Positions 13,869-15,046 of a DNA stretch of 32,101 bases are shown one piece after another. The DNA comes from an uncultured bacterium. Lineage in GTDB: Bacteria; Patescibacteriota; Minisyncoccia; Minisyncoccales; CBDVAW01. The stretch's first letter is position 1. Each line of letters starts with the position of its first letter. The DNA lies in contig CBDVAW010000003.1 of the NCBI GenBank assembly GCA_965372095.1, positions 1-32,101 on the forward strand, written 5' to 3'. The position numbers were made by a program, and so were the translations under genes. The notes beneath the pieces are model-generated. The model worked only from the letters and a program-made list of their open reading frames with translations. It did not search any database and was not told the origin of the DNA.

Positions 13869-13890
13869 AAAATTCCGCTCGGGAGCGGAA
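13869..13890 (-). terminator. Terminator of rnpB
   Basis: TTCCGCT-cccg-AGCGGAA-TTTT on the minus strand just past the rnpB 3' end. Confidence 0.6.
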
Positions 13891-13898
13891 ATAAAAAG

Positions 13899-14552
13899 GC
13901 TCAAGCAGACGATAAGCCGAATTTTGTCCCCAAATTTTGGGGGGTAATCATCTCTCTGTGCGATCTACTTTTTTCTTTACCGTCTTAACGGCAAAGATTT
14001 GATCTTGCACCAGGTAGGGTTTACCACATCAGAACGTTGCCGCCTGATGAGGGGAATTTTATTTCCCCACTTTTCACCTTAGCCTTCTCAACTTTTTAGC
14101 CTTTAGAGTGCGGGATTCAAACCAGAGTCAATTTAGCGGAAAGAATTTGGGCAAGGTTCAAGATGCGAGGAGCGTAATGTATCCATAGGACACATAAGCA
14201 ACGAGCAACAAAGAAGATTACCCGAATTCTTTCCGCCCGAAGGGAAGCGAAATAATGGGTCAATCCCTTCGTCACTTCTCCTCAAGGTATTAATCCTTAA
14301 TACCTTTTCGTCGTCGTTTCTTAAACTTAATCCATTATTTCATTCCTAAACTTGATTCTGGTTTGAATCCCACACTCTTTAGGGCTAAATTGATGCGATT
14401 GGCTGTTTAGTCTCTGTGACACTTTCCCTAGGATCACTCCCGGTCGCCGTTAGCGACTACCTACTTCCCGCCTTAATGACGGGGGTGTTCGGACTTTCCT
14501 CTACTATCCTCGCTTAAAGCAAGTATAGCAGCGATTACCTGTCTACTTGAGC
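13899..14552 (-). ncRNA. rnpB: RNase P RNA, 654 nt because of an insertion in P12
   Basis: P1 GCTCAAGTAGAC/GTCTGCTTGAGC, GAGGAAAGTCC, GGAAAGTGTCACAGA, GGTGAAA, GGTAAACCC..GTGCAA and ACAAAATTCGGCTTAT, all in the expected order. Confidence 0.96.
14106..14377. mobile_element. MITE-like palindromic element (272 bp) inside rnpB P12
   Basis: About 31-bp imperfect terminal inverted repeats (GAGTGYGGGATTCAAACCAGARTCAA...), TTTA on both flanks (14102-14105 and 14378-14381), no transposase ORF. Confidence 0.8.
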
Positions 14553-14558
14553 ATTAAT

Positions 14559-14587
14559 ATTCTAACAGAAAAAAAACGTGTTGTCAA
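14559..14587 (-). promoter_or_regulatory. rnpB promoter
   Basis: TTGACA, 17 nt, TGn-TAGAAT. The predicted +1 coincides with the first base of P1 (14552). Confidence 0.85.
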
Positions 14588-14590
14588 TCA

Positions 14591-15046
14591 CTAAAACATT
14601 TCCCGGTTTCTGTTGATATTGTCTAAAGCTTCATTCACCAAGCTATCCGCTTCTTTATTTTTTTCTCTTGGGATATGCGTGATATTAACGCTTTTAAAAT
14701 CCAGCTTAAGATTCCAGACCGTTAAAAACAAACATTGAATTTTAGAATCCAAAACCTTATATTGTCCGTTTAATTGTTTGGCTATCAGTTCAGAATCTGT
14801 TTTTACTTCAATATTCATTTTCTTAGCTGTTTGTTTCCCAAAAAGAGCTTTGATTTTCTTTAAAGCGAAAATCACGGCCTTATATTCAGCCTCATTGTTA
14901 GTTGCTATCCCCAAACGTTCACAATATTTTCCTAAAACACCTTTATCAGAAGAAATAACCACTCCTATGGCGGCTTGCCCCGGATTGCCTCTTGACCCGC
15001 CATCAGTATAAACAATGATATTAGTTATGGATTTATCGTATTTCAT
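14591..15046 (-). CDS. rnhA: Ribonuclease HI family protein
   Basis: YTDGGSRGNPG, TNNEAEY, TDSEL, REKNKEADSL. Confidence 0.93.
   Translation of the reverse strand: MKYDKSITNIIVYTDGGSRGNPGQAAIGVVISSDKGVLGKYCERLGIATNNEAEYKAVIFALKKIKALFGKQTAKKMNIEVKTDSELIAKQLNGQYKVLDSKIQCLFLTVWNLKLDFKSVNITHIPREKNKEADSLVNEALDNINRNREMF

Follow-up and report, generated by a model that had tools for sequence, protein, structure and literature searches.

A small palindromic repeat, probably a mobile element, in the P12 loop of the RNase P RNA gene of a Patescibacteria bacterium

RNase P RNA is an essential ribozyme, and the question raised by the locus described here is how its gene, rnpB, can hold some 280 bases that have no counterpart in the model of the molecule. 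The gene lies in the window (the whole 32,101-nt stretch of contig CBDVAW010000003.1 that was analysed) and is the single rnpB match in the host genome, that of a ~0.6-Mb Patescibacteria (Candidate Phyla Radiation, CPR) bacterium from marine sediment, which is represented by a metagenome bin of 622,490 bases in 49 contigs, 99.6% complete by marker genes (G000; other G numbers below denote relative genomes, C numbers contigs and L numbers loci). We consider it likely that a non-autonomous element resembling a MITE (miniature inverted-repeat transposable element) entered this single gene at a TTA within the P12 apical loop, and that it is tolerated through ends that extend P12. The MITE-like reading proposed in an initial annotation of the same DNA is thereby supported. 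Within the window, the gene, its native P12 helix and the parts of the insert lie as follows.

13897-14550, minus strand: rnpB, RNase P RNA of bacterial type A (RF00010), 654 nt with the insert included.
14086-14101, minus strand: native P12 helix of rnpB, 3′ strand (inverted repeat I5, cmscan P12 columns, fold).
14383-14398, minus strand: native P12 helix of rnpB, 5′ strand, pairing with 14086-14101 (inverted repeat I5, cmscan columns, fold).
14106-14377, plus strand (family consensus orientation): palindromic mobile element, non-coding and MITE-like, 272 bp (five-copy alignment, family profile).
14103-14105, no strand: left copy of the target-site duplication, TTA (TTA directly before GAGTG in five of five host copies).
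14106-14134, no strand: left terminal inverted repeat, 5′ arm of the outer stem (inverted repeat I1; helix 1).
14136-14236, plus strand: arm 1 of the Y (inverted repeat I2; helices 2-6; match of model R1 at 14132-14239, 103 bits).
14242-14347, plus strand: arm 2 of the Y (inverted repeats I3 and I7; helices 7-9).
14349-14377, no strand: right terminal inverted repeat, 3′ arm of the outer stem (inverted repeat I1; helix 1).
14379-14381, no strand: right copy of the target-site duplication, TTA (CACTC-T-TTA in five of five host copies, with a constant T at 14378).

The length of 654 nt given to rnpB in the initial annotation is matched by cmscan, which aligned 13897-14550 to RF00010 (RNaseP_bact_a) over model positions 1-367 of 367 with 143 bits, the gathering score being 100. 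The blocks GAGGAAAGUCCG and ACA.AA..CGGCUUA of the conserved core were likewise aligned to the model. Being of full length, above the curated score and in possession of the core, the gene thus appears from its sequence to encode a type A RNase P RNA. The ~280 bases without model counterpart fall between RF00010 positions 136 and 137, which correspond to the P12 apical loop.

This excess had been ascribed to a 272-bp segment in the P12 loop, and both the segment and its site hold: alignment of the copies in the host genome sets the boundaries at 14106-14377, where the element runs GAGTG...CACTC, and the unaligned block falls at RF00010 136/137. The element is antisense to rnpB, the plus strand of the window being that of the family consensus. 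Terminal inverted repeats, put at about 31 bp in the initial annotation, are present with a different extent, namely 29 nt within the element proper, and 35-nt arms of 86% complementarity (14100-14134 and 14349-14383 in the inverted-repeat search) when the flanks are counted. TTTA does stand on both sides of the rnpB copy, at 14102-14105 and 14378-14381; judging from the sequences of all five host copies, however, the target duplication at rnpB is more probably of 3 bp (TTA) than of 4 bp, because TTA alone is common to their left flanks. Taking out the element and one repeat leaves the compact hairpin UUUAGCC-CUAAA-GGCUAAA and an RNA of normal size, 378 nt (654-272-4) or, if the duplication is of 3 bp, 379 nt, just as had been claimed.

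That other copies exist was also borne out. A BLAST search against the 622,490 bases of the host genome returned four further copies of 89-96% identity:

C9, 18016-18295: host copy, 94% identity.
C32, 154-433: host copy, 92% identity.
C41, 1050-1315: host copy, 89% identity, with a 14-bp internal deletion.
C33, 6547-6715: host copy, 96% identity over the parts present, with one arm (arm 1) missing.

The flanks of the five copies are unrelated, yet every one of them (5/5) is immediately preceded by TTA and followed by T and then TTA, and a family profile search of the host genome found no copy beyond these five. The element thus shows the features of a MITE in being small and non-coding, in its terminal inverted repeats and target-site duplication, and in its dispersed copies with unrelated flanks. 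Many more copies occur in relatives, as described below. The copy in C32 sits 25 nt after a tRNA-Leu(caa) gene.

The non-coding character of the element was examined against two candidates. Stop-free frames of ~70 aa exist on both strands and were grouped across loci by blastp; a protein-coding reading was nevertheless rejected, because variability among family copies is flat across codon positions (0.263/0.258/0.241) and length differences among copies are mostly not multiples of 3. The open reading frames (ORFs) inside the element are of 26-52 aa only, and a 36-aa ORF merely overlaps its right end. Likeness to tRNA was suggested by a T-loop-like GGTTCGAATCC in the element ends and was judged coincidental, distant subfamilies being without it; ARAGORN found no tRNA within the element. 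An Rfam scan of 14050-14450 at E values up to 10 returned no family for the element and no intron model, yielding only rnpB itself (truncated) and chance matches to MIR8562 and ST7-AS2.

Folding of P12 together with the insert on the rnpB-sense strand gave -126.3 kcal/mol, against -74.4 ± 4.8 kcal/mol in 100 shuffles (z = -10.8), the opposite strand giving -122.3 kcal/mol. In the predicted structure, P12 leads through a small A-rich internal loop, derived from the duplicated TTA, into an end stem of ~26 bp, P12 and this outer stem forming one near-continuous helix, and the end stem then opens to two long hairpin arms, yielding a Y shape. Each arm has a basal helix that covaries and an apical hairpin (at 14284-14306 in arm 2), and the conserved internal loops are rich in purines in arm 1 and in pyrimidines in arm 2. 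The proposal of the initial annotation that the inverted repeats extend P12 as a helix agrees with this model, in which the ends stack on P12. As expected of an intervening sequence, the element sits at the tip of a native helix and, in the predicted folds, prolongs it as a long duplex, both here in P12 and in a hairpin loop of the 23S rRNA genes described below.

A mechanism may be proposed on this basis. Insertion at the TTA in the P12 apical loop would duplicate TTA, and the two ends of the element would pair, such that the transcript of the interrupted rnpB would still close P12. The element would then prolong P12 as a side branch directed away from the catalytic core, and the essential ribozyme could thus carry the insert; the same end-pairing logic would cover the relatives found in a 23S rRNA hairpin loop. 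The appendage may be kept as an expansion segment, or it may be trimmed by host RNases, in which case the product would be an RNase P RNA in two pieces, joined through P12 and the helices of the core. Structural tolerance of this kind, in which the ends zip up and turn the insertion into a peripheral helix extension, is the most likely explanation and is what we infer from the predicted fold, the position of the insert, the 23S cases and the example of Thermodesulfatator indicus discussed below; the ribozyme would tolerate the element because it extends P12 away from the catalytic core. As to the final form of the enzyme, a mature RNA with a 272-nt Y-shaped appendage and a two-piece RNA stand at near even odds. 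We lean slightly towards cleavage, because RNase III typically acts on duplexes such as this near-perfect one of ~26 bp, and the gene for this enzyme (rnc) is present in the host genome.

To what extent the element is shared with other bacteria was assessed by BLAST and by a covariance model. At E ≤ 0.01, BLAST matches were obtained in 50 of 401 genomes of the same order (the host included), representing 42 of 246 genera; about 25 of these genomes had matches at E ≤ 1e-8, and many matches covered the full 272 bp with 68-79% identity. Five carriers were searched in full, and full-length copies numbered ~14 in G306, ~11 in G400, ~7 in G339 and ~5 plus fragments in G216. In a phylum-wide BLAST sample (E ≤ 1e-6), only the host genome matched (1/401), which suggested that the family was confined to the order. 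This notion was overturned by R1, a covariance model of arm 1 built from 25 copies: of 151 genomes drawn from the class, 11 had matches to it, as many as 19 arm matches being found in a single genome. Because ten of these genomes lie outside the order, the family is class-wide and patchy in distribution.

The family is diverse in its ends and in its parts. At least three end-stem subtypes (GAGTG..., CCCGACAGG... and GCCTACGAG...) coexist in the single genomes G306 and G400 (L086-L105); they share subterminal sequence and core, and a clear TAA/TTA duplication is found in the GAGTG type only. Deletion forms with one arm, like the copy in C33, also occur in the genomes of relatives, the structural variants without arm 1 including G000:C33:6547-6715 and G216:C2:69047-69241, and a composite variant with extra copies of the arms was found at L053 (G035:C1). 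Given these one-arm and composite forms, the findings suggest that the arms of the element behave as modules.

Whether the fold has been maintained was investigated by covariation in 26 of the 34 copies in hand (alignment A1). Left out were the host copies in C41 (14-bp deletion) and C33 (a single arm), L053 (composite), L058 (3′ part divergent), L060 and L074 (insertions of 43 nt and 30 nt), and L064 and L072 (truncated at contig ends); 25 of the 26 copies of A1, all but that in C9, made up alignment A2 and model R1. On A1, RNAalifold predicted 91 pairs, 74 of which had both sides changed with pairing kept in at least one sequence, against 48.5 ± 2.8 such pairs in shuffles, and 92.6% of cells were paired, against 73.3 ± 0.6%; for either measure, none of 500 shuffles reached the observed value. 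Slid controls, with partners shifted by 1-3 columns, were 31-45% paired. The same helices were recovered when all column pairs of a MAFFT alignment were scanned independently. Compensatory changes were seen in all helices, the internal arms included, and in 28 of the 29 pairs of helix 1 (the outer stem), whose outermost ~10 bp are wholly different among subfamilies and still complementary. The internal-loop sequences are conserved across families and orders, the conserved unpaired blocks being purine-rich in arm 1, pyrimidine-rich in arm 2 and complementary to each other. Because R1 matches both arms on opposite strands, arm 2 is an inverted relative of arm 1.

As regards mobility, the 3-bp TTA/TAA duplication together with the inverted ends suggests that the element was moved by a DDE transposase supplied in trans. 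Duplications of 2-3 bp are made by IS5-type (IS1031 group), Harbinger-type and IS30-type enzymes. TAA or TTA was present on both sides in five of the six copies of G400 that have the same end type. Lone matches to the ends of the element were located at contig ends in G400 and G035 and as intergenic remnants in G306, and two motif scans of viral contigs gave no match and two chance matches, respectively.

Several observations weigh against the insertion of a MITE-like element that P12 tolerates. The duplication is not consistent in 14 copies of the two other end types in G306 and G400. A matching transposase, as envisaged by the initial annotation, was not found in the DDE and rve profile searches of the host and high-copy genomes: DDE_Tnp_1 (PF01609) and DDE_Tnp_1_2 (PF13586) had no match in the host genome, PF01609 and DDE_Tnp_4 (PF13359) none in G216, G400, G306, G339 and G035, and DDE_3 (PF13358) none in G000, G306, G400, G339 and G216. 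The profile PF00665 (rve) matched an IS30-like element in contig C28 of the host and two places in G400. The former (G000:C28:~1880-2927, equal to L279:904-1951), which has a 337-aa ORF with HTH_38 and a weak rve match and inverted ends of 22 nt, was considered as the partner and rejected, its ends being unlike those of the element by blastn-short. Thus, the cognate autonomous element with the same ends that usually accompanies a MITE was not seen in the host and high-copy draft genomes; since these are draft bins, its absence is not proven, and an autonomous partner may simply be unassembled. Furthermore, a PGK-based search of metagenome contigs yielded no close relative that shows the empty site; the best PGK identity was only 52%, and there is therefore, to judge by this protein sequence, no genus-level relative among those contigs. 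Continuity of the assembly, which the initial annotation had made a point on which its reading could fall, is supported for the left junction by an independently assembled contig, whereas the right junction is bridged by none of the listed public contigs that match the rnpB stretch (DNA only, from two runs); no run recorded as RNA is listed for this stretch. None of the contigs joins across the element either, and the uncovered parts, like the lack of a contig across the element, count as evidence in neither direction. The three full-length host copies within A1 (those in rnpB, C9 and C32) show no double change in any pairwise comparison, each comparison giving 2-4 one-sided changes with pairing retained and 6 disrupted pairs; by their sequences, they look like neutrally decaying repeats rather than structures under selection, uncompensated differences being what young, neutrally decaying repeats would show. 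Finally, that the fold makes the element neutral inside a structured RNA, and hence its tolerance, retention or excision, is what we infer from the model of the transcript.

Another possibility is that the family goes beyond selfish DNA and represents a structured RNA module with strand specificity, either a mobile intervening sequence or an expansion segment, which would be transcribed in or next to stable-RNA genes and be excised by host RNases or have a processing role of its own, the rnpB copy being one functional or semi-domesticated case. Where the copies sit bears on this. An Rfam scan of 43 loci (the window, L002-L005, L047-L075, L281-L283 and L285-L290) showed that at 12 of them the element lies in a stable-RNA gene or no more than 100 nt away from an rRNA, tRNA or rnpB gene: once in rnpB, twice inside 23S rRNA genes, three times beside rRNA genes (42 nt before 23S, 53 nt before 16S and ~50 nt after 16S) and six times within 100 nt of a tRNA gene. 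The family is thus found in or near stable-RNA genes more often than the ~3% predicted by our rough estimate from gene density (12/43 vs ~3%). Three copies end 3-6 nt from the 5′ end of a tRNA, tRNA-Glu at L287:1475-1742, tRNA-Leu at L288:~1373-1635 and tRNA-Ala at L051:172-442; these copies fall in what would be the tRNA leader cleaved by RNase P. Most copies are nevertheless intergenic, no protein gene recurs beside family copies, and none of 20 copies of G306 and G400 had a complete tRNA in its 100-nt flanks (rRNA lay outside that scan), so that no general target preference is claimed.

The two 23S members, L062:1477-1752 (G080) and L071:1479-1747 (G206), are in sense orientation and both lie in a hairpin loop near position 230 of the large-subunit (LSU) rRNA model, the 272-nt block of L071 occupying the loop of a small hairpin there. 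They stem from two genera, have a private end-stem type and share 75.6% identity, and their differences comprise 11 two-sided changes that keep the pair, 5 one-sided changes that keep it and 13 that break it. If both go back to a single insertion event, the fold has persisted at its site within an rRNA gene. The 23S gene of L071 also has a second, unrelated insertion of 160 nt, located ~55 model positions downstream.

To these positions, and to the 11 compensatory changes at one 23S site in two genera, are added the compensatory changes in internal arms that no transposase needs to match, and the conservation of the internal loops across families and orders. Counted on the plus strand of the window, G-U cells outnumber A-C cells in arm 1 (80 vs 18) and in arm 2 (51 vs 32) and equal them in the end stem (31 vs 31), several positions being G-U in most copies; this may point to the plus strand as the relevant single strand, although the count is biased by a structure predicted on that strand. 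A strand-specific module sits badly, on the other hand, with an rnpB copy that is antisense to the favored strand, with the mixed orientation of copies to their neighbors, with the 20 copies of the two high-copy genomes that have no complete tRNA in their flanks, and with host copies that decay without compensation. Co-evolution with a transposase could account for the covariation in the outer stem, and independent insertions for the 23S pair. We regard such a module as improbable. A bolder version, which we hold to be doubtful, is that a class-wide, strand-specific RNA module colonizes the loops and leaders of rnpB, 23S, 16S and tRNA genes and is cut out by RNases, with a two-piece RNase P RNA in the host and fragmented 23S rRNA in the carriers, and that the complementary loops of its arms form a tertiary fold or a protein-binding site used in processing or mobility.

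Far less probable than either is that the extra sequence is a lineage-specific expansion of P12 that grew in place, with no transposition. The rnpB genes of the order do vary, from 285 to 654 nt in 41 genomes, the genomes of these relatives measuring 0.3-0.9 Mb, and idiosyncratic expansions occur in P3 (81 nt), P12, P15-17 and P18 (120-237 nt) of genes of up to 605 nt other than that of the host; none of the expansions in the long rnpB genes is related to the element. Large helix extensions in CPR RNase P RNAs are also reported in the available part of PMC8172020. The boundaries of the insert are, by contrast, sharp, its removal leaves a perfect small P12 hairpin, and four copies of the same element lie at unrelated host loci with TTA flanks, with hundreds of related copies elsewhere. 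Neither was there the gradual lengthening of P12 in relatives that the initial annotation had named as a sign against its own reading: at four of the eight metagenome loci scanned, rnpB lies near PGK, is 328-399 nt long and is without the element, and the long genes are expanded elsewhere or by unrelated sequence. L197, one of the eight loci, has a copy of the element outside rnpB.

The 605-nt rnpB of G017, a genome of another family (L076:101-705, equal to G017:C9:23807-24411), deserves mention in this context. There, a 237-nt expansion replaces P15-P17 and holds a repeat of ~133 nt (rnpB positions ~283-415), which has a 93% match on another contig and matches of 75-81% at eight or more further places on both strands. 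The core of this repeat is a palindrome of ~95 bp with inverted ends of its own, unrelated to the 272-bp element. Because the rnpB of G017 holds a different dispersed palindromic repeat, small palindromic repeats have invaded peripheral helices of rnpB at least twice, as unrelated elements. A second stretch of the G017 gene (443-505) matches another place in the same genome at 92%.

An assembly artefact, in which the contig was mis-joined through the repeat and the real rnpB is uninterrupted, is scarcely credible. Admittedly, the bin is a metagenome bin of 49 contigs, the right junction is bridged by no listed public contig, and the repeat does break assemblies, since three host copies sit near contig ends (C32 at 158, C33 98 nt from the end and C41 at 1054). 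A mis-join would, however, link unrelated loci, whereas the flanks of the element are the complementary strands of one P12 helix, in register and with the duplication. In addition, a separately assembled public Logan contig from marine sediment (223 nt, 5 differences) covers 14024 (in rnpB) to 14246 and with it the left junction, although it possibly derives from the same sample, and, as already stated, no contig joins across the element. Equally hard to credit is a self-splicing intron (group I, group II or a new class) that would restore RNase P RNA by ligation: the richness of CPR rRNA and tRNA genes in group I and II introns (PMC11270868 and PMC8172020, as far as the available parts of these articles go) and the presence of the element in structured-RNA genes at least three times are outweighed by the failure of any Rfam intron model to match, by the mostly intergenic copies, and by terminal inverted repeats, a target duplication and either orientation to host genes, which are features of DNA transposition.

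A MITE-like element inserted in P12 is thus the reading to be compared with known systems. Correia elements (NEMIS) of Neisseria are bacterial MITEs, small and non-coding, with inverted ends, a short A/T-rich duplication and many copies; when they are co-transcribed, their ends form a long hairpin, which in the case of Correia elements has been reported as a target of RNase III. By description, the present element is alike in its small size, non-coding nature, inverted ends, short A/T-rich duplication and dispersed copies, and differs in its three-way fold, its loops conserved across orders, its Patescibacteria host and its site in an essential ribozyme. Rickettsia palindromic elements occur inside protein-coding genes and an RNA gene, are shorter and lie mostly in frame in proteins. 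The likeness to these is behavioral only, both being palindromic selfish repeats of reduced genomes that would survive in essential genes by self-folding; here, the element resides in rnpB and 23S rRNA genes and folds into a Y instead of a plain hairpin. Closer to the gene in question, Vioque is said to have described, in 1997, STRR repeats, which are short repetitive sequences in tandem, within P12 of rnpB in heterocyst-forming cyanobacteria, which are reportedly tolerated by the enzyme. In both cases a genome-wide repeat lies inside P12 of rnpB; the cyanobacterial repeats are short tandem heptamers, whereas the present one is a discrete element with inverted ends and a target duplication.

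A further parallel is the type A RNase P RNA of T. indicus, which likewise has extra sequence at the end of P12 and whose P12 expansion, according to the available part of the article, is excised in vivo, the fragmented RNA complementing Escherichia coli (PMC9945441; RNA 2023; 29:376). That expansion measures ~70-87 nt and is not described, in the same part, as a repeat or as mobile (PMC9945441), as opposed to the 272-nt, multi-copy, transposon-like insert of the present gene. Among CPR bacteria, Tsurumaki et al. (2024) found insertions in 82% of 23S genes, including a class that is neither group I/II intron nor ORF-bearing and for which RNase III-type intervening sequences are suggested (PMC11270868, available in part). 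Two members of the present family are 23S inserts of this uncharacterized kind; the accessible text of that article deals with rRNA genes only and mentions neither a dispersed repeat family nor rnpB (PMC11270868). Divergent RNase P RNAs of CPR bacteria, in which helices are greatly extended or absent, were reported by Lui et al. (2021), with no mobile element in the part of the article that is available (PMC8172020). Our literature search, which covered few subscription journals, returned no MITE or palindromic mobile element in rnpB and no such repeat family in CPR bacteria.

The nearest precedents for the interrupted ribozyme are thus the tandem repeats in cyanobacterial P12 and the excised P12 expansion of T. 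indicus. What is new here is the spread of the family, its conserved Y fold, its 23S members, and an rnpB gene, that of G017, with a different palindromic repeat. Because the rnpB insert is a mobile repeat and a second, unrelated repeat lies in another CPR rnpB, the findings suggest that part of the size variation of CPR RNase P RNAs and of the uncharacterized rRNA insertions stems from small self-folding mobile elements. The locus lets one gauge, in a natural case, how large a stretch of foreign RNA is tolerated by the specificity domain, and RNase P in this host is a candidate for a natural enzyme with its RNA in two pieces. Less expected is the family, which is class-wide and covarying, with conserved loops and no known transposase in genomes of ~0.6 Mb, and which deserves a description of its own.

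The remaining features of the locus concern the expression of rnpB and its neighborhood. The initial annotation had listed promoter, core motifs and terminator as intact, and, in addition to the aligned core blocks of RF00010, sites that match the respective consensus are in place:

14559-14587, minus strand: sigma-70-like promoter of rnpB, TTGACA, 17 nt, TG-extended TAGAAT (a consensus match only).
13873-13890, minus strand: terminator-like hairpin and T run, with a 7-pair stem, 4 GC pairs and the tail TTTTAGTTTG (a consensus match only).

The promoter-like site has 11 of 12 matches and ends 9 nt upstream of the rnpB 5′ end. Since promoter-like sites are not in excess over the whole region scanned (2 observed vs 2.2 expected from shuffles), the case for it rests on position rather than on count. 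The terminator-like hairpin begins 7 nt past the rnpB 3′ end. For the protein partners of the transcript, the host genome encodes, besides RNase III, an intact rnpA of 116 aa; the two genes are located at C1:17001-17390 and C31:5472-5795, respectively. The neighbors of rnpB on the same strand are housekeeping genes, encoding LepA, MurJ, an RNase H-like protein, a DHH phosphoesterase and PGK. The RNase H/RVT_3-like gene (151 aa, 14591-15046, minus strand) ends 41 nt upstream of the rnpB start, and in this region one public contig of 80% likeness, which may belong to another organism, skips 168 bases (14665 to 14834).

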